31,006 bases of DNA, from positions 1 to 31,006 of the forward strand of contig JAFCCX010000001.1 of the NCBI GenBank assembly GCA_017609995.1, written 5' to 3'. The translations under genes and the position numbers were made by a program. The notes below the pieces were generated by a model, which saw only the letters and a program-made list of their open reading frames with translations, searched no databases and was not told the DNA's origin. This document shows positions 1,446-8,877 of this stretch, piece after piece. The stretch comes from Candidatus Pacearchaeota archaeon (lineage in GTDB: Archaea; Nanobdellota; Nanobdellia; UBA10117; JABICX01). Position 1 is the stretch's first letter. Each line of letters opens with the position of its first letter.

Positions 1446-1480
1446 ACTAATACTTAGTTACGAAAGATATAAAAAACTAG

Positions 1481-1564
1481 TGGCAGGGACATGATTCGAA
1501 CATGCGAAGGCACTAAGCCACAGGATCTTAAGTCCTGCCCCTTTGACCACTTGGGTACCCTGCC
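1481..1564 (-). tRNA. tRNA-Leu(UAA)
   Basis: Reverse complement folds as a cloverleaf: acceptor GGCAGGG/CCCTGCC, anticodon loop CT-TAA-GA, long variable arm, TTCGAAT T-loop. No encoded CCA. Confidence 0.95.
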
Positions 1565-1685
1565 GTAATATTCTGGGTCTAATTTAGTTTTTAAGTGTTT
1601 CCACGACCATAGAGAGTGGAAGCCAGCGAATTCTGAAAGAGCGTGTTTCCGATAGTTTTAAAAGTAAGTTTTCCAGTTGTTTTGT

Positions 1686-2372
1686 ATGGTTAAGAAAATA
1701 TCCAAAAAACACATCAGGAACGTAATAATTGTAGGTAAACCTGGTGCTGGAAAAGGTGTTAGAGCAGAAATTCTAAGTTCTGAATTAAAGTTGAAACACC
1801 TTTCAACAGGTGATATTTTCAAAGAAATTCTAACAAAGAAAACTCCACTAGCAACTAAAGTTAGAAAATATTACGAAGCTGGACATCTTGTTCCAGACAA
1901 AATTGTGAATGAAGTTTTCGCAGAATATTTCAAAAAACATGATTACAAAGGCTGTATTTTAGACGGCTTTCCGAGAAATGTTTCACAAGCAAAGTTCTTT
2001 ATGAAACTTTTAGAAAAAAAAGGCAGCGGTGTTGATATGATTATTCTTTCTCACAGAGAAGATAAGGATATTGTTGAGCACATTATTCACAGACATGATT
2101 GTTTAGATTGTAATAAGATCTATCATATGCAAGATAACCCACCAAAGAAAACAGGAGTATGCGATATTTGTGGTGGAAAAGTTACTCAAAGATCTGATGT
2201 TCACAAAATCAAGATGAGACTTGATGTTTTTAGAAAAGAAATCGAGCCAATGATTGATTGGCTGAAAAAGCACGATGTTCATTTTATAATGGTCCCTGGA
2301 AAAGTTGATCCTTACAGCCAGAAAGCTATACGGGAATCTGTAATGAAAGAACTCCGCCGTGTTCTAAATTAG
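1686..2372 (+). CDS. adk: Adenylate kinase (bacterial type, Zn-LID), paralog 1
   Basis: GKPGAGKG P-loop, HLSTGD, LDGFPR and CxxC...CxxC LID. ATG 1686 is preferred because TTTTAAAA lies about 25 nt upstream. Confidence 0.88.
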   Translation: MVKKISKKHIRNVIIVGKPGAGKGVRAEILSSELKLKHLSTGDIFKEILTKKTPLATKVRKYYEAGHLVPDKIVNEVFAEYFKKHDYKGCILDGFPRNVSQAKFFMKLLEKKGSGVDMIILSHREDKDIVEHIIHRHDCLDCNKIYHMQDNPPKKTGVCDICGGKVTQRSDVHKIKMRLDVFRKEIEPMIDWLKKHDVHFIMVPGKVDPYSQKAIRESVMKELRRVLN

Positions 2373-2414
2373 ACATAGAAACGCTTTTAAACCAACTTTC
2401 TGCCTTATTTTTAT

Positions 2415-2486
2415 GGGCCCATAGCATAATGGATAGTGCGGCCGGCTTCGGACCGGTTGATGGGGGTTCGAATCCTCCTGGGCTCA
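2415..2486 (+). tRNA. tRNA-Arg(UCG)
   Basis: GGGCCCA/TGGGCTC acceptor, GCCGG-CTTCGGA-CCGGT anticodon arm, GGGGG-TTCGAAT-CCTCC T arm. Confidence 0.95.
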
Positions 2487-2489
2487 CTA

Positions 2490-2512
2490 GAAACTTTTTC
2501 AAAAAAAGTTTC
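2490..2512. repeat. Perfect 10-bp inverted repeat between tRNA-Arg and tRNA-Glu
   Basis: GAAACTTTTT-CAA-AAAAAGTTTC. Confidence 0.85.
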
Positions 2513-2527
2513 ATCAAAAAACGATCT

Positions 2528-2644
2528 GCCCCTGTGGTGTAGTCCGGTTAATCATACCAGCCTCTCAAGCTGGTGACTCGAGTTCAAAGCGAGCTTCGCT
2601 CGGTTTACTACGAACGAAGTTTGGAGAAAATCTCGGCGGGGGCA
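2528..2644 (+). tRNA. tRNA-Glu(CUC) with a 42-nt non-canonical T-loop intron (about 2589-2630, position 59/60)
   Basis: GCCCCTG/CGGGGGC acceptor, CCAGC-CTCTCAA-GCTGG anticodon arm, TCGAG/CTCGG T-stem. Removing 2589-2630 restores the T-loop TTCAAAT. Confidence 0.92.
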
Positions 2645-2649
2645 TACAA

Positions 2650-2841
2650 TTATATACACCGTGTAGAATTATCAAATTTTTTACTTATGAAAGAAGGGTC
2701 ATCATCTGGAATGATTTCTAAGGCAATATCGCCATCATCACCATCATCTTCAACAGCTAGAATTATTTTTACCTTTTCAGCAAGCTCTTTAACTAGCTTA
2801 TCTTCCACTCTTTTCCAATTAATATTCATTTTTTTAGGCAT
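2650..2841 (-). CDS. Small hypothetical protein (63 aa, MPKKMNINW...)
   Basis: 3' part of the track ORF 2650-2952. ATG 2841 lies 25.5 nt from the centre of TTATAA (2864-2869). Confidence 0.6.
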   Translation of the reverse strand: MPKKMNINWKRVEDKLVKELAEKVKIILAVEDDGDDGDIALEIIPDDDPSFISKKFDNSTRCI

Positions 2842-2863
2842 TAGGACTGGTAGATAGGAACGC

Positions 2864-2869
2864 TTATAA
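2864..2869. promoter_or_regulatory. Centred TATA box shared by divergent starts at 2841(-) and 2892(+)
   Basis: The palindrome TTATAA is equidistant (25.5 nt) from both ATGs. Confidence 0.65.
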
Positions 2870-2891
2870 ATTCTTATATGGCCTACTAGAC

Positions 2892-3278
2892 ATGACAGCA
2901 TTGAAAAGACCAAAATCAATGGATGAGTTAGCTTATTACACTCGCAGAGCAATTGGAACTGGAAAGGCAGAATTATGGGTTTTCAAAGAGAAATGCTCAT
3001 GTGGCGCTTTACCAAAAAAGCCAAAGATGCGAGCTCCAACTTACGAATGTAGTTGTGGAAAAAGTATTCCAAAAGATGAATATGAAGAGAAGCTAACAGC
3101 AAGTATAGTATATACTTGTCCGCATTGTAATTTTTCTGGTGAAACACAAGTCCCATTTCATAGAAAGAAAGTAACTATTTTTGATGAGAAAAAACAAAAG
3201 AAAGTTCGAGTAGAGTCTGTAAGATTTCAATGTGAAAAGTGTGGAAAAGATATCGATGTTACAAAGAAGATGAAGTAG
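2892..3278 (+). CDS. Uncharacterised multi-Zn-ribbon protein
   Basis: Four Cys pairs (CSC, CSC, CPHC, CEKC) in a basic 128-aa protein. From recall (not a search) it resembles a conserved hypothetical of Woese-/Pacearchaeota. Confidence 0.8.
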   Translation: MTALKRPKSMDELAYYTRRAIGTGKAELWVFKEKCSCGALPKKPKMRAPTYECSCGKSIPKDEYEEKLTASIVYTCPHCNFSGETQVPFHRKKVTIFDEKKQKKVRVESVRFQCEKCGKDIDVTKKMK

Positions 3279-3423
3279 AATCATCTTTCTTTTTCTTAGC
3301 GTCTTCATAATTTGTTTTGTTTAGAGCAACTGTTTCAGCTTGGTCAATTATTTTTTCAGAATCTGAAAAAGCTAAACCCATATCTTTCAGAATTTTCCGT
3401 AGTTCTTCTTTTCGGTCTGTCAT
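3259..3423 (-). CDS. Small hypothetical protein (54 aa), not in the ORF track
   Basis: ATG..TAA ORF MTDRKEELRKILKDMGLAFSDSEKIIDQAETVALNKTNYEDAKKKKDDSTSSSL. Minus-strand TTTATATT lies about 25-30 nt upstream, and the ORF fills an otherwise empty gap. Confidence 0.6.
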   Translation of the reverse strand: MTDRKEELRKILKDMGLAFSDSEKIIDQAETVALNKTNYEDAKKKKDDSTSSSL

Positions 3424-3502
3424 TAAGCTGCCTAAAACAAACTTGAATATAAAGTTTTAGGTTAAGAAAGGTTTAATAATTCTCTGAACAGTTGAAATTT
3501 AT

Positions 3503-3574
3503 GCCTCTGTGGCTCAGCGGTAGAGCGCGTGCTTGGTAAGTGCGAGGTCGCGGGTTCGATTCCCGCCAGAGGCT
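3503..3574 (+). tRNA. tRNA-Thr(GGU)
   Basis: GCCTCTG/CAGAGGC acceptor, loop TT-GGT-AA, GCGGG-TTCGATT-CCCGC T arm. Confidence 0.95.
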
Positions 3575-3611
3575 TAGAAAGTTTTTTATTGTTCTAGTGT
3601 TCTTCTTTTGC

Positions 3612-4733
3612 ATGTCAAAGAGATGGCTAGGCCTATTTTTCATATTCATATTAATCACCGGTATTGGAACTGCTTATGCGTTGCCTGATTTAATTATAGA
3701 TTTCTCTCCAAAAGAAGTTGAAATACAACACGATGAGACTGCACTCTTTGATGTTGAACTAACTAATAATTATAATGTTCACCAGAACATTTCAATTCCA
3801 ACACCAAGAACTGATTGGAATATTTACATTAGTGATTATTTCCTTCAGATTCCGCGTACTGTTTCTAAAAACACAACAATAGCAATAACTCCACCACCAG
3901 ATGTAGAAGCAGGTGAATATGGAATTTATATTGAATTTAATTCAGAAACAAGCCCAGAAGTTAGTACATACAAATATTTCCAAGTGAAAGTTACAGATGA
4001 CGGTCCAGGAATTACACCACCACCAAGAAGAGAAGCTTTGGTAACTGAATCTTCTGAAAAGGGTTTTCTAACAGAAACATTTACAGTTACTATTCTAAAT
4101 ACTGGAACAATGAATATCTCTGATAAATATTCTGTTTCAATTGAATCTCCTGATTACTTTTTCTTTAGTGCATTACCACTACAAACAATGTCTAAAAAAA
4201 TAGATAGTATACAAGAATACACTTGGTATTATGAGCTTATACCTGGAGAAGAAGATACAATTACTTACAAAATATCCTATCTTCCTTTACTTATTGCTGG
4301 AATCTTAATTGTATTTGCAGCATTTATGCTCGCATTCTATTACATAACTAGATTTACATTAAAGAAAGAGATTGTTATGAAACCAACTAAGAAAAAAGAC
4401 GAACATAGAACAATCAAAATAAGACTTAACTTGAAAAATAATACATACTCTGATCAGAAAAACGTTGTTCTAAGAGACAGTGTTCCTTCTCCATTAAAAG
4501 TTACTGAGAACTTTGGAACACTTGAACCAACAATACGGAAATCAAAAGGACATAAAGTTCTAACTTGGAAATTTGATAAATTAGAACCAAGAGAAGAGCG
4601 AGTTGTTTCTTATGAACTTAAATCATCAATGGAAGTAATCGGAAAAATCCTTATTCCACAAGCAGTTGCAAGCCAGAAAGTTGGTAAGAAACTTGAACGA
4701 ATTTATTCTAGAATTTCTAGGAAAGATAAGTGA
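3612..4733 (+). CDS. Membrane-anchored cell-surface protein (signal peptide, beta-rich Ig-like domains, TM helix, DUF11-like C-terminal domain)
   Basis: True start is probably ATG 3612 (MSKRWLGLFFIFILITGIGTAYA), since the track start lies inside tRNA-Thr. TM segment LLIAGILIVFAAFMLAFYYI. C-terminal VVLRDSVP...LTWKFDKLEPREERVVSYEL. Confidence 0.75.
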   Translation: MSKRWLGLFFIFILITGIGTAYALPDLIIDFSPKEVEIQHDETALFDVELTNNYNVHQNISIPTPRTDWNIYISDYFLQIPRTVSKNTTIAITPPPDVEAGEYGIYIEFNSETSPEVSTYKYFQVKVTDDGPGITPPPRREALVTESSEKGFLTETFTVTILNTGTMNISDKYSVSIESPDYFFFSALPLQTMSKKIDSIQEYTWYYELIPGEEDTITYKISYLPLLIAGILIVFAAFMLAFYYITRFTLKKEIVMKPTKKKDEHRTIKIRLNLKNNTYSDQKNVVLRDSVPSPLKVTENFGTLEPTIRKSKGHKVLTWKFDKLEPREERVVSYELKSSMEVIGKILIPQAVASQKVGKKLERIYSRISRKDK

Positions 4734-4761
4734 TTTCTAAGGTTAGATATTAACCCAAACG

Positions 4762-4769
4762 TTTATAAA
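4762..4769 (+). promoter_or_regulatory. TATA box of tRNA-Tyr
   Basis: TTTATAAA about 24 nt upstream of the tRNA 5' end. Confidence 0.7.
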
Positions 4770-4792
4770 CCAAAATTAAGGAAAAATAGTAA

Positions 4793-4899
4793 CCCCTCGT
4801 AGCTCAATGGTAGAGCGCACGGTTGTAGATTGGTTTACCAGCTAATAACTGGTCCGTGCAGATCCCGTGAGGTTCCTGGTTCAAATCCGGGCGAGGGGA
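4793..4899 (+). tRNA. tRNA-Tyr(GUA) with a 35-nt anticodon-loop intron (about 4829-4863, position 37/38)
   Basis: C1-G72 acceptor CCCCTCG/CGAGGGG with A73, CACGG/CCGTG stem, GTA at 4825-4827. The central BHB helix TTGT/GCAG has bulges AGA and ATC. Confidence 0.92.
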
Positions 4900-4900
4900 C

Positions 4901-5056
4901 TTATTTTTTAGTCTTCTTTTTTTTGATCCATCCGCCACCTTTCTTTTTGACCCAACCTGTTGCTGCACTGCAAACTGCCCAAGGATTTACTTTCTTTTTC
5001 TTTCCCTGGTTTTTTCGCGTAACATCTTTGACACACTTTTCTAATATTTTTGGCAT
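4901..5056 (-). CDS. Small very basic Cys/Trp protein (51 aa), not in the ORF track
   Basis: MPKILEKCVKDVTRKNQGKKKKVNPWAVCSAATGWVKKKGGGWIKKKKTKK. It fills the Tyr-Asp spacer and has TTTATAAA (5088-5095) upstream. Confidence 0.72.
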   Translation of the reverse strand: MPKILEKCVKDVTRKNQGKKKKVNPWAVCSAATGWVKKKGGGWIKKKKTKK

Positions 5057-5087
5057 GAAATAAGAGCACAATTATACAATAAAAAGA

Positions 5088-5095
5088 TTTATAAA
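5088..5095. promoter_or_regulatory. TATA box for tRNA-Asp, possibly shared with the divergent small ORF
   Basis: TTTATAAA about 24 nt upstream of tRNA-Asp; the sequence is self-complementary. Confidence 0.65.
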
Positions 5096-5118
5096 TGGCT
5101 TATCGGAGTCAAAATTAT

Positions 5119-5268
5119 GCCCTGGTGGTGTAGCGGCTATCATCTCAGCCTGTCGAGCTGAGGACTCGAGTTCGAGCGTAATTCAGGGGACCAACGAAGC
5201 GAAAATATTATAAACGCTTCGAATAACACAAATATACCTTGAATAAACCGAAAATCTCGGCCAGGGCG
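5119..5268 (+). tRNA. tRNA-Asp(GUC) with a 78-nt non-canonical T-loop intron (5177-5254, position 59/60)
   Basis: GCCCTGG/CCAGGGC acceptor with G73, TCAGC-CTGTCGA-GCTGA arm, TCGAG/CTCGG T-stem. BHB with central helix TTCG/CGAA and 3-nt bulges AGC and AAT. Confidence 0.93.
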
Positions 5269-5295
5269 CTTTAATTCCTTTAGGAGCGTGTCAAA

Positions 5296-5577
5296 CTGCC
5301 TAAAAAATCTTCTTCTCCAAGCAAAAAGAATGAAACCACCTCAAAGGAGACTCTTAATTTATCAAAACATATTCTTGTACCAAAACATATACTCTTATCT
5401 GATAAAGAGAAGACTGCGCTTTTAGATAGTTATAATATTTCAGAATTTCAAGTACCTATCATTAAAATAAAAGACCCAATTATTAAACTTATAAACGCTA
5501 AACCTGGAGATGTAATTAAAATTACCAGAAAAGGTCCGACAGGGACTTATGAATATTTTAGAAGAGTAACTGATTAA
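5296..5577 (+). CDS. rpoH: RNA polymerase subunit Rpo5 (H), probable CTG start; missed by the ORF track
   Basis: KHILVPKHILLSDKEK...PIIKIKDPIIKLINAKPGDVIKITRKG...YFRRV is the Rpo5 signature, in the expected position before rpoB''. No in-frame ATG/GTG/TTG follows the upstream TAG (5281-5283). AGGAG lies 9 nt before CTG 5296. Confidence 0.93.
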   Translation: MPKKSSSPSKKNETTSKETLNLSKHILVPKHILLSDKEKTALLDSYNISEFQVPIIKIKDPIIKLINAKPGDVIKITRKGPTGTYEYFRRVTD

Positions 5578-5578
5578 A

Positions 5579-7078
5579 ATGAATATAGAAGATCAACAAA
5601 TGCTGATAAGGAAATATTTCGAAGAGAATAACTTCGTAAAAAGCAATATTGATTCTTATGATTCGTTTATTAAATGGAGAATTCAAGAGATAATTTCTGA
5701 CCAAAAAGAGGCAATTCCTGCAGTTATTCCGCCAGATATGGAAGATGTGAGATTTAGATTCGGCGAAGTTTTCATTAAACAACCAACAATTATCGAAGCA
5801 GATGGTGCGGAAAGAATGCTTTTACCAACAGAAGCCAGACTTCGAAACTTGTCTTACAATGCTTTAGTTTACATTGAAGTTAGTTTAGTTATTGATGGAA
5901 AAGAGCGAGATAGAGCTGAGGTTCAAATCGCTGAGATTCCGGTTATGGTTCGGTCAGGTCTTTGTTATCTAAACAAAATGAACAGAGAAGAATTGATTAA
6001 AGCTGGAGAAGATCCAGGAGATCCTGGAGGTTATTTTATTATTGATGGAACAGAAAGAGTTCTAGTTCTATTAGAAGACTTAGCTCCAAATCACGTTTTT
6101 ACTAAAGAAGAAAAAGTTGGCCCATCAACTCATTCTGCAAATGTTTTCTCAGCAAGTGAGAGCTACAGAATCCCACTTGAAATGGAGAGAAGCAAAGATG
6201 GATTATTTTTAGTTAGTTTTTCAGGAATTCATAGAGTTCCATTTGTTGTTCTATTGAAAGCTCTTGGAATTAAAGTTGATAAAGACATTCTTGAAACAAC
6301 AACTCTTGAAATGAATGAAGACATGTATATTAATTTCTATGAGTTTACTGAGCTTGTTAAGACACAAGAAGAAGCACAGGAGTTTATTGCAAAGACACTT
6401 CACTTAAGTTTACCAAAAGACAGAAAACTTCAGAGAGTAAATTACATTCTTAATAATCTTTTATTACCGCACCTTGGAAAAGAGTCAAAGAACAGAAATG
6501 CTAAAGCAGCTTTCCTTGGACGAATGGTTAAGAAAATACTTCTCCTAAAAGCTGGAAAGATTACACCTGATGATAAAGACCATTACATGAACAAAAGAGT
6601 TCGACTTGCAGGAGATTTACTTGAAGATCTTTTCAGAACAAACTTCAAAGTTTTGGTTAATGATATGTTGTATATCTTCCAGCGAGGAGTTAGACGAGGA
6701 AGATTAATTCCAATAACTTCTATTGTTAGAACAAAACTTTTAACACAAAGAATTAAGAGCGCAATGGCAACTGGTAAGTGGACAGCAAACAGACAAGGAG
6801 TTAGCCAGAGATTAGAACGAGATAATCCATCTAACACTTTCTCACACTTACGAAGAGTTGTTTCACTTTTAGAATCAAACAGAGAGAGTTTCAAAGCTCG
6901 GGAACTTCACCCAACACATTGGGGAAGACTTTGCCCACTTGAATCTCCAGAAGGTAAGAACATTGGTTTGAGAAAGAACTTAGCAATTCTAGCTCAAATT
7001 ACACCAAAACTTACACAAAAAGATTATGCAGATATCATGCGAGGATTAGAGAAACTAGGTTTGGAGATGATTAAATGA
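5579..7078 (+). CDS. rpoB2: RNA polymerase subunit Rpo2N (B'')
   Basis: EARLRNLSY, DPGGYFIIDGTERV, DKDHYMNKRVRLAGDL and WGRLCPLESPEGKNIGL motifs. Confidence 0.97.
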   Translation: MNIEDQQMLIRKYFEENNFVKSNIDSYDSFIKWRIQEIISDQKEAIPAVIPPDMEDVRFRFGEVFIKQPTIIEADGAERMLLPTEARLRNLSYNALVYIEVSLVIDGKERDRAEVQIAEIPVMVRSGLCYLNKMNREELIKAGEDPGDPGGYFIIDGTERVLVLLEDLAPNHVFTKEEKVGPSTHSANVFSASESYRIPLEMERSKDGLFLVSFSGIHRVPFVVLLKALGIKVDKDILETTTLEMNEDMYINFYEFTELVKTQEEAQEFIAKTLHLSLPKDRKLQRVNYILNNLLLPHLGKESKNRNAKAAFLGRMVKKILLLKAGKITPDDKDHYMNKRVRLAGDLLEDLFRTNFKVLVNDMLYIFQRGVRRGRLIPITSIVRTKLLTQRIKSAMATGKWTANRQGVSQRLERDNPSNTFSHLRRVVSLLESNRESFKARELHPTHWGRLCPLESPEGKNIGLRKNLAILAQITPKLTQKDYADIMRGLEKLGLEMIK

Positions 7079-8877
7079 CTGACGTATTAATTGACGGATC
7101 ATTAGTAGGAACTGTTTCAGATGGTAAAACGTTTGTACAAGATCTTATCACTTCAAGACGAGCTGGAAAAATATCTGCACAAGTTAATATTCTATACAAT
7201 GAAAAAGAAGAAAATGTAAGTATTGATTTCGGAAGAAATAGAATTCGAAGACCACTAATTGTTGTTAAGAATGGAACTTCTCTTTTGACACCTGAACTTA
7301 TAAAAGATTTGAAAGATAAAAAAATAAAATGGTTTGATCTTATAAAAAGGGGTGTTATTGAATATCTTGATGCATTAGAAGAAGAGAGTACATTAGTGGC
7401 ATTAAAGGAAGAAGATATAACAAACGAACATACACATCTTGAAATCAATCCAATTTCAATTTTTAGTGTAAATGTTTCTTTAGTTCCATATCCAAATTAC
7501 AATCAGAGTTCTCGACTTGCAAGAGGTCAGAAGAATCAGAAGCAAGGTGCAGGAATTTACGCACTTAATTTCTTAAACAGATTAGATACAAATATGAACT
7601 TACTTCATTATCCACAAACACCAATGGTTCGAAGTTTCACACAAGATATTTTTGGTGATTCTTTAGTTGGTGGACAGAATATTGTAATTGCTGTCTTAAA
7701 CTATGGTGGTTATAATATGGAAGACGCAATTGTAATTAATCGAGCATCAATTGATAGAGGTCTTTTCAGGTCAACTCATTATCGACCATATACAACTGAG
7801 AAGCTAAGATATGCTGGTGGACAGGTAGATGAAATTGGAATTCCACCAAAAGACACACAAAGTTATACACTTGAAGAGGATTACAGATTCTTAGGTGAAG
7901 GTGGTCTAATTTATCCTGAAGTTGATGTTACTGGCGGAGATGTTTTAATTGGTAAAACTTCACCTCCAAGATTCTTAAGCCATTTAGAATCATTTAGTAT
8001 GACTGCAAACATTAGAAAAGACACATCTATTAGAGTAAAATATGGTGAAAAAGGAACTGTATCAAAGGTTTTCTTAACTGAAAGTGGAGAAGGTAACCCA
8101 CTTGTTCGAGTTGAGGTTAGAGAAAACAGACTTCCAGAAGTTGGAGATAAGTTTGCATCACGACATGGTCAGAAAGGAATTATTGGTATGATTGCAAATC
8201 CAGAGGATGTTCCATTCACAGCATCAGGAATTCAACCAGATATTATATTCTCACCATTTGGTATGAGACGAATGACTGTTTCTCAGATTCTTGAAACACT
8301 TGGTGGAAAAGTTGGAGCAATGGCTGGAAGATTTGTTGATGGAAGCGGATTCCAAAGTGAAGATGTTGATAATTTAAGAACAGAATTACTTGACTTAGGT
8401 TTTAGAGAAGATGGAACTGAAACACTTTATGATGGAAGAACTGGAAGACTTTACAATGCAAGAATCTTTGTTGGTAATACTTTCTATATGAGATTAAAAT
8501 ATCAAGTTACAGATAAACTTCAAGCAAGAGCTCGTGGAAGAGTTGCACTTCTTACAAGACAACCTACTGCTGGTAAGGCAATGGAGGGTGGTCTGAGATT
8601 CGGAGAGATGGAGAAAGAAACTCTTGTAGGTCATGGAGCATCATTGTTAATGAAAGAAAGATTTGATTCAGATAAGACAGTTACTTATGTTTGTGAAAGA
8701 TGTGGTGATATTGCTGTTAGAGATCACTACAAAAATAAACTTACTTGTTTGAGTTGTGGAGATAAAGCAAAAGCATCTCCAATTGAAGTTTCTTACGCTT
8801 TCAAATTATTCCTTGATGAACTTAAGAGTATGGGAATACGTCCAAGATTAATACTAAGGGAGAAATACAAATCATGA
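7075..8877 (+). CDS. rpoB1: RNA polymerase subunit Rpo2C (B')
   Basis: GDKFASRHGQKG, LLTRQPTAG, GGLRFGEMEK and the C-terminal Zn site CERC...CLSC. Confidence 0.97.
   Translation: MTDVLIDGSLVGTVSDGKTFVQDLITSRRAGKISAQVNILYNEKEENVSIDFGRNRIRRPLIVVKNGTSLLTPELIKDLKDKKIKWFDLIKRGVIEYLDALEEESTLVALKEEDITNEHTHLEINPISIFSVNVSLVPYPNYNQSSRLARGQKNQKQGAGIYALNFLNRLDTNMNLLHYPQTPMVRSFTQDIFGDSLVGGQNIVIAVLNYGGYNMEDAIVINRASIDRGLFRSTHYRPYTTEKLRYAGGQVDEIGIPPKDTQSYTLEEDYRFLGEGGLIYPEVDVTGGDVLIGKTSPPRFLSHLESFSMTANIRKDTSIRVKYGEKGTVSKVFLTESGEGNPLVRVEVRENRLPEVGDKFASRHGQKGIIGMIANPEDVPFTASGIQPDIIFSPFGMRRMTVSQILETLGGKVGAMAGRFVDGSGFQSEDVDNLRTELLDLGFREDGTETLYDGRTGRLYNARIFVGNTFYMRLKYQVTDKLQARARGRVALLTRQPTAGKAMEGGLRFGEMEKETLVGHGASLLMKERFDSDKTVTYVCERCGDIAVRDHYKNKLTCLSCGDKAKASPIEVSYAFKLFLDELKSMGIRPRLILREKYKS

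Follow-up and report, generated by a model that had tools for sequence, protein, structure and literature searches.

A long T-loop intron in an archaeal tRNA-Asp(GUC) gene and the promoter-like box conserved in its interior

The window analysed here, a 31,006-nucleotide stretch of DNA from Candidatus Pacearchaeota archaeon (GenBank assembly GCA_017609995.1, contig JAFCCX010000001.1), contains a tRNA-Asp(GUC) gene that is interrupted within its T-loop. The gene is almost certainly functional: a 78-nucleotide (nt) intron splits the T-loop between nucleotides 59 and 60 and is bordered by a strict bulge–helix–bulge (BHB) motif, at which EndA would cut and RtcB would join the exons. The interior of this intron carries a block, conserved among relatives, that resembles the promoter box of the genome's own tRNA genes. 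The reading that we tentatively prefer is that the intron doubles as the carrier of a second promoter, P2, which would feed the 3′ exon together with the RNA polymerase operon beginning with rpoH downstream, and that the long intron would have been kept for that. The source genome (G000; the window is its contig C43) spans 0.53 Mb and is 71% complete, the genomes of its relatives range from 0.3 to 1.2 Mb, and we infer the host to be a DPANN-like ultrasmall archaeon. Comparisons were made across a family set of six genomes (G000 plus G001–G005) and an order set of 39 genomes (G numbers), and metagenome and fetched stretches are labelled with L numbers.

The two exons (Table 1), when joined by script, give a 72-nt RNA for which ARAGORN returns a complete tRNA-Asp(GUC) cloverleaf with the T-loop TTCGAGT, and the first exon scores 70.7 bits with a covariance model, R1, that was built on exon 1. 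The T-stem, in which TCGAG (5166–5170) pairs with CTCGG (5256–5260) through 5 bp including one U·G pair, is at the same time the outer flanking helix of the BHB. It is followed by a central helix of 4 bp, TTCG (5171–5174) with CGAA (5249–5252), and by two bulges of 3 nt each, AG/C (5175–5177) and AA/T (5253–5255), where the slash marks the cut after the second bulge nucleotide on both strands. The inner helix starts with GU/AC (5178–5179/5247–5248) and continues, across a 1 × 2 internal loop, into an 8-bp helix. This geometry is that of the strict hBHBh′ motif shifted from 37/38 to 59/60. A sequence-only reading of the same DNA had described the tRNA with its 78-nt T-loop intron and strict BHB, had predicted splicing at 59/60 to a TTCGAGT loop and had proposed covariation among relatives as a check; every feature is present in the sequence as it was described, the form spliced in silico is a perfect ARAGORN cloverleaf, and the central helix does co-vary, as set out below.

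Standard searches do not recover the gene in this form. The Rfam tRNA model gives it 18.8 bits, below the cut-off of 29, and the raw ARAGORN call (5120–5189, 70 nt) was set aside as an artefact that takes intron bases as the acceptor strand, with 6 of 7 acceptor pairs and a poor T-arm. Likewise dropped was the idea that 5177–5190 is what remains of a former 3′ end (6 of 14 positions identical, counted by eye), as it was seen in no relative. A mobile or repeated intron was rejected: a BLAST search of the intron against its own genome returned only itself and one 17-nt match (E 0.23), hence no second genomic copy, and the intron of the neighbouring tRNA-Glu gene is dissimilar.

Whole-gene BLAST found orthologues in none of the five other family genomes, and the orthologues described here were found with model R1; an IUPAC pattern that matched 3 of the 39 genomes and missed two of its own source genomes was replaced as too strict. 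Four family genomes hold a tRNA-Asp gene with a 59/60 intron, of 90 nt in G001, 94 nt in G003, 66 nt in G002 and 60 nt in G004, the last two genes having an additional intron in the anticodon loop; no tRNA-Asp was found in G005 by the same model search. Across the order, 23 tRNA-Asp genes were recovered, nine with a 59/60 intron, one with an insert at 53/54 (G012), twelve without an intron in the T-arm and one cut by a contig end, the inserts of G007, G008 and G012 having been read by eye. Outside this count stand 16 genomes, of which six (G005, G009, G016, G030, G032 and G034) gave other tRNAs, mostly tRNA-Glu, among the hits retrieved, and ten contributed no retrieved sequence. A scan of metagenome sequences for the 3′ junction added 31 tRNA-Asp(GUC) genes with 59/60 inserts of 15–108 nt among 80 loci; the other 49 failed the tRNA-Asp test and lie mostly on GC-rich contigs.

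The covariation of the BHB was read at position 57 and its partner over 41 T-loop-intron tRNAs. The central helix is perfect in 33, as TTCA/TGAA with an A57–U pair in 21 and as TTCG/CGAA with a G57–C pair in 12; eight show a mismatch and none the crossed combination. For the 31 metagenome loci the search pattern fixed three of the four partner bases and left the co-varying base free. Two or three introns (D-loop, anticodon loop and T-loop) interrupt many of the tRNA-Asp genes from metagenomes. Within one genus, the tRNA-Asp of G038 (L045) has a 39-nt T-loop intron and those of G025 (L046) and G029 (L047) have none; since their exons are otherwise near-identical, gain or loss of the intron in this genus is recent.

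The splicing machinery is encoded. EndA (gene at L009 202–825, minus strand; G000:C7) is a single-unit protein of 207 amino acids (aa) with N- and C-terminal domains that match PF02778 and PF01974, and its best solved relatives are the alpha subunit from N. equitans and the alpha4 enzyme from M. jannaschii. It has a 30-aa lysine-rich N-terminal extension and, in a pairwise alignment, is without the insertion of the N. equitans alpha subunit. Exactly one EndA-domain match occurs per genome in all six family genomes. RtcB is likewise encoded, with a score of 560 bits.

For a comparison of the intron interior, the five family genes were aligned from the T-arm through the intron to the spacer. The interior is essentially unalignable, except for the block 5201–5214. 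Among 88 interior columns 15 are invariant, and these comprise 10 of the 14 columns in the block against 5 of the 74 elsewhere, a concentration that none of 10,000 permutations reaches. The block forms the A/T loop of a 7-bp hairpin and is predicted to be unpaired. Folded alone, the window's intron reaches −15.6 kcal/mol, compared with a shuffle mean of −6.4 (z = −4.2; none of 200 shuffles as good), and the fold consists of exactly the 8-bp helix and the 7-bp hairpin; enforcing the BHB costs the T-arm plus intron 1.0 kcal/mol relative to the free minimum. Relatives do not conserve the hairpin stem: a 4-bp counterpart exists in G004 only, and in G001 the block lies in a 46-nt loop. The closing helix next to the BHB, of unrelated sequence, has 10 bp plus extensions in G001, is present in G003, is short in G004 and is absent from G002. 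Thus, of the multi-helix interior noted in the sequence-only reading, both helices do fold here, but the four family orthologues do not preserve the hairpin. The further suggestion that this extra structure points to a stable RNA was not borne out: what is conserved is the primary sequence of the hairpin loop, which matches a promoter box, and not the fold.

The promoter matrix was obtained from a motif search upstream of the 22 tRNA genes of the genome and then refined. A 14-mer resembling a B recognition element (BRE) and TATA box ends 23–25 nt upstream of the tRNA in 14 of the 22 genes, tRNA-Asp included (P1 in Table 1). The intron block, P2, matches this matrix with 8.4 bits, a score for which 0.035 sites are expected per intron strand, and the orthologous boxes score 11.4 (G001), 12.2 (G003), 10.2 (G002) and 8.7 bits (G004); on the minus strand, those of G001 and G003 reach 3.7 and 2.8 bits. 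The T-loop introns of tRNA-Glu in the same genomes score −1.1, −0.5 and 1.1 bits, and those of tRNA-Asp in two other families −0.1 (G011) and −8.7 bits (G038). Since the block matches the promoter box of the genome, it looks like a signal at the DNA level and not an RNA fold. A promoter is also favoured by G012, of another family, in which a box of 13.1 bits precedes by 24 nt a second copy of 'UGAAAA + tRNA-Asp 3′ exon' immediately before rpoH, and by the precedent of A. pernix described below. A scan for sigma-70-type promoters was set aside as irrelevant for archaea.

It is nearly certain that in the precursor the T-stem, the UUCG/CGAA helix, the two 3-nt bulges and the inner helix form the strict BHB; both bulges would be cleaved by the single-unit EndA and the exons ligated by RtcB. 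In the preferred reading, P2 would serve as a BRE/TATA box in the orientation of the tRNA. With the usual box-to-start spacing of the genome, RNA polymerase would start at about 5237–5241 (5237–5239 with the 23–25 nt of the tRNA genes), in the 3′ strand of the closing helix and about 14–18 nt before the 3′ splice site, and the P2 transcript, led by the final 14 nt of the tRNA, would continue into rpoH–rpoB–rpoA. The intron-derived leader is predicted to be 17 nt long here, 24 nt in G001 and 23 nt in G003, each with a complementary helix, and 9 nt in G002 and 8 nt in G004, without one. Maturation of tRNA-Asp would rely chiefly on the read-through precursor from P1, spliced in cis in the ordinary way; joining the P1 5′ piece to the P2 leader in trans would be possible but not needed.

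The arrangement of rpoH was examined for the same question. In 5255–5300, between the tRNA and rpoH, the best matrix score is −2.0 bits. Owing to this lack of a promoter-like site and to the gap of 14 nt, transcription of rpoH has to begin inside the tRNA gene or upstream of it. The box and the CTG codon discussed next are 76–89 nt apart in the five family genomes (counted by eye). The rpoH frame opens after a TAG at 5281–5283 and offers no ATG, GTG or TTG before the conserved HxLVPKH motif, and CTG 5296, behind AGGAG, aligns with a Shine–Dalgarno-preceded CTG in all four relatives (L013, L022, L018 and L026). These features of the sequence suggest that rpoH is initiated at CTG.

Several observations weigh against a promoter in the intron. 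The score of P2 is below those of all 14 training sites (10.2–17.1 bits), and 563 genome positions reach it, only 40% of them outside long open reading frames (21.9% of the genome); since so many positions score equally, the match predicts little on its own. The box is also near-palindromic: on the minus strand it reaches 7.4 bits in the window's intron, 9.4 in G002 and 12.7 in G004, the last being above the plus-strand score, so that orientation is unclear in one genus; it is ambiguous in G002 and G004. The matrix itself was trained on 14 tRNA promoters, all from a genome that is 71% complete, and the relatives were scored with it unaltered. Furthermore, in G010 an intronless tRNA-Asp abuts rpoH behind a single upstream box only, and in 10 metagenome loci with the order tRNA-Asp, tRNA-Lys, rpoH no site before rpoH exceeds 8.5 bits (three of these loci have an Asp–Lys spacer of only 9–17 nt). 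Transcription of rpoH together with the tRNA from P1 is therefore common, and a dedicated rpoH promoter is not required. The order tRNA-Asp, tRNA-Lys(UUU), rpoH is found at the metagenome loci L062, L075, L085 and L119, where tRNA-Lys likewise has a 59/60 T-loop intron.

These points lead to the main rival, which we regard as a lesser but real possibility: the intron is an ordinary, if unusually long, BHB intron whose interior helices only present the BHB, rpoH is expressed by read-through from P1 and is freed by 3′ processing of the tRNA, and the TATA-like block persists either as a leftover, for instance from an insertion or duplication that gave rise to the intron, or for some other reason. 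Co-transcription of rpoH with upstream tRNAs seems to be the rule in relatives without an intron box, the P2 of the window is a weak match of low specificity, the stretch from the tRNA to rpoH shows no terminator-like site, and T-loop introns of 15–108 nt are widespread, 29 of 31 scoring below 8.4 bits. What an ordinary intron leaves unexplained is that 10 of 14 positions are invariant over three genera amid an otherwise unalignable intron, and that the sense strand matches the consensus in G001 and G003 (11.4 and 12.2 bits versus 3.7 and 2.8 on the minus strand).

An adjacent split tRNA of the Aeropyrum pernix type seems unlikely. In this reading, the RNA would mainly come as two distinct transcripts, a 5′ piece from P1 and a 3′ piece from P2 that consists of the leader and the 14-nt exon. 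Paired with each other in the acceptor stem, the T-stem, the central helix and an 8-bp leader/trailer helix, the two pieces would be trans-spliced at the BHB. Such a gene would account for the same-strand box inside the intron and for a predicted start, 16–18 nt before the 3′ splice site, that coincides with the beginning of the 3′ strand of the 8-bp helix; the leaders of 24 and 23 nt in G001 and G003 come with complementary helices of 10 bp and longer. There is a precedent in A. pernix, and the permuted tRNAs of Thermofilum pendens and Cyanidioschyzon merolae, with 3′ parts of 14–17 nt, are joined at 59/60, according to the available text of the A. pernix report (PMC3218864). Nevertheless, 5189–5236 contains neither a run of at least four T nor a terminator-like site that could end the 5′ piece, and the leaders predicted for G002 and G004 have only 8–9 nt and no leader/trailer helix. 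The lack of a terminator-like signal before the box disfavours a predominantly split, trans-spliced gene.

Least probable of all, and very unlikely in our view, is that the excised, circularised intron is a structured, stable RNA that has its own function, with the 8-bp helix and the 7-bp hairpin as the parts that carry it. Circularisation of tRNA introns is general among archaea, RtcB circularises introns in other archaea, and here RtcB is encoded and the intron folds far better than its shuffles (z = −4.2). However, the hairpin is conserved in none of the four family orthologues, the helices share no sequence, the intron strand has no Rfam match at E up to 10, there is no second genomic copy, and the conserved part is predicted to be unpaired. 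Neither a C (RUGAUGA) nor a D (CUGA) box is present in 5177–5254; with no such boxes and no Rfam match, an intron bearing a small RNA (sRNA) of the C/D box type was rejected as well.

A further reading, also rather unlikely, is that tRNA-Asp and the RNA polymerase operon share an RNA: the 5′ end of the rpoH mRNA would be the 3′ 'half' of a tRNA split at 59/60 and would be trans-spliced through the BHB to the P1 piece. The locus of G012, a member of another family, bears on it (L002 1660–1896). It carries an intact tRNA-Asp with an insert at 53/54, then, after 195 nt, a box of 13.1 bits, 24 nt past the box a second copy of 'TGAAAA + 14-nt tRNA-Asp 3′ exon', and then rpoH. The 3′ end of tRNA-Asp is thus present as a 17-nt direct repeat, of which the first copy completes the tRNA, and the second has, in place of the T-loop letters, the BHB partner of the T-loop TTCA (TGAA, then AA/T). 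The locus may represent a stage on the way to a T-loop intron. If the RNA were shared, G012 would be an evolutionary intermediate in which T-loop introns would arise by duplication of the tRNA 3′ end around an inserted promoter.

Table 1. Positions of the gene for tRNA-Asp(GUC), its putative regulatory boxes and neighbouring features in the window
Feature	Position	Strand	Basis or remark
tRNA-Glu(CUC)	2528–2644	+	42-nt T-loop intron 2589–2630, at 59/60
tRNA-Tyr(GUA)	4793–4899	+	35–38-nt intron at the canonical position; Rfam match; found by ARAGORN in intron mode only
P1, BRE/TATA-like box of tRNA-Asp	5082–5095	+	14.6 bits; ends 24 nt before nucleotide 1
tRNA-Asp(GUC) gene, entire	5119–5268	+	read from the sequence
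tRNA-Asp exon 1, nucleotides 1–59: acceptor 5′ strand, D-arm, anticodon arm, T-stem 5′ strand, T-loop 54–59	5119–5176	+	sequence; spliced cloverleaf
Intron, 78 nt, between nucleotides 59 and 60	5177–5254	+	strict hBHBh′
8-bp closing helix, one G·U pair	5181–5188 (5′ strand) / 5237–5244 (3′ strand)	+	intron fold
7-bp hairpin, CGAAGCG 5195–5201 / CGCTTCG 5215–5221, 13-nt A/T loop 5202–5214	5195–5221	+	lineage-specific
P2, BRE/TATA-like box inside the intron	5201–5214	+ (as tRNA and rpoH)	8.4 bits; conserved in 5 of 5 family genes
tRNA-Asp exon 2: nucleotide 60, T-stem 3′ strand, acceptor 3′ strand, discriminator G	5255–5268	+	sequence; spliced cloverleaf
AGGAG ribosome-binding site of rpoH	5282–5286	+	starts 14 nt after the tRNA end
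rpoH (RNA polymerase subunit H/Rpb5)	5296–5577	+	PF01191, E 2.8e-24; probably CTG start
rpoB″	5579–7078	+	downstream of rpoH
rpoB′	7075–8877	+	downstream of rpoB″
rpoA′	from 8874	+	downstream of rpoB′

The tRNA-Asp gene belongs to a stretch, 1480–5268 of the window, with six tRNA genes. A small and very basic open reading frame of 51–56 aa with a lysine-rich tail (4901–5071, minus strand) is divergent from it, and the P1 box between the two, being near-palindromic, could serve both directions. With regard to leaderless tRNA transcription as in Nanoarchaeum, RNase P RNA is present in three of the six family genomes and was not found in the 71% of the window's genome that is available.

A genome-wide search for T-loop inserts gave exactly two tRNA-like cases, tRNA-Asp and the sister gene tRNA-Glu(CUC). 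The latter yields a perfect cloverleaf when spliced in silico, and it is seen neither by ARAGORN nor by Rfam. Its BHB is relaxed, with UUC/GAA plus an A·A mismatch, and the promoter matrix finds no promoter-like box in its intron. The tRNA-Glu(UUC) of G004 and the tRNA-Glu(CUC) of G005 have T-loop introns at the same position. In G003 (L023 and L024), an intact tRNA-Glu(UUC) and an intact tRNA-Gln(CUG) are each accompanied by a second copy of the segment from the T-loop to the 3′ end, 150–190 nt later, with hairpin-rich inserts between the copies; these duplicated segments look like att-type repeats from small integrated elements. With its single-unit EndA, the genome of the window nonetheless holds, in tRNA-Glu, a relaxed BHB at a non-canonical site, and the family appears to process both strict and relaxed T-loop BHBs with this single-unit enzyme. 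EndAs of the alpha4 type have been described in DPANN archaea alongside many disrupted tRNA genes and incomplete tRNA sets (Kaneta et al., PMC5829648, available text). The co-occurrence of single-unit EndA with both BHB types bears on the debate over which EndA types tolerate non-canonical introns, as presented in the available parts of PMC5829648 and PMC3239211.

Since T-loop introns at 59/60 have already been published for archaea, DPANN included, the intron is one of a known kind. In the available text of a review, 59/60 is listed as a non-canonical intron position in Crenarchaeota and Nanoarchaeota (PMC4090602). In ARMAN-2 (Ca. Micrarchaeum), pre-tRNA-Cys with a 13-nt intron at 59/60 was cleaved in vitro, and pre-tRNA-Pro also has an intron there (Fujishima et al., 2011; PMC3239211). 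ARMAN-2 and the present host have in common an ultrasmall archaeal cell, the intron position and the splice motif. There are distinguishable differences: the ARMAN-2 introns are short (13 nt in tRNA-Cys) and the available text of that report describes no internal signal in them, whereas the present intron has 78 nt and a box, and the ARMAN-2 EndA is a three-unit epsilon2 enzyme, whereas each genome here has one single-unit gene.

The closest precedent for the intron interior is the tRNA-Asp(GUC) gene of A. pernix, which contains a 121-nt 'intron' with a same-strand BRE/TATA promoter that resembles the gene's own, and transcription starts internally, 20–25 nt before the intron's 3′ end, as verified by northern blot and reverse-transcription PCR (Chan, Cozen and Lowe, 2011; PMC3218864). 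To the extent of the available text of this paper, on which the comparisons in this paragraph draw, the two genes share the isoacceptor, an unusually long intervening sequence, a strict hBHBh′ followed by a complementary stem and, as predictions only in our case, a mid-placed same-strand BRE/TATA box that resembles the gene's own upstream promoter and a start some 20 nt before the 3′ end. They differ in the junction, which in A. pernix is 37/38 with halves of 40 and 35 nt and here is 59/60 with a 3′ part of 14 nt, and in the stem, which is G/C-rich with 14 bp there and has 8 bp here. The separate transcripts of A. pernix were shown by experiment, whereas the present case is known from sequence alone; the 3′ part here runs directly into the rpoH operon, and the available account of A. 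pernix mentions none such. The lineages also differ, A. pernix being a crenarchaeon and the present host DPANN-like. The permuted tRNAs of T. pendens and C. merolae have in common with this gene a BHB at 59/60 that joins a long 5′ part to a 3′ part of 14–17 nt; they are, however, circularly permuted, with the 3′ part upstream and one promoter, whereas the order here is normal. Finally, tRNA-Trp introns are long archaeal tRNA introns with a second job, as is proposed here, but they carry a C/D box sRNA, whereas the present intron has no C/D boxes and its conserved element is a DNA-type signal.

In the literature searched, which did not cover subscription journals, we found neither a T-loop intron with a promoter nor a tRNA intron that feeds a protein operon. 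The gene adds one more hidden tRNA to a lineage in which standard finders return incomplete tRNA sets, as ARAGORN and Rfam fail on both tRNA-Asp and tRNA-Glu. If P2 works, it would add a second case to the one archaeal tRNA 'intron' known to hold a promoter; it would be the first in a T-loop and, within the literature searched, the first reported to feed a protein-coding operon, that of the RNA polymerase genes. A working P2 would also provide a selective reason for a long tRNA intron and a testable link between intron-containing and split tRNA genes.

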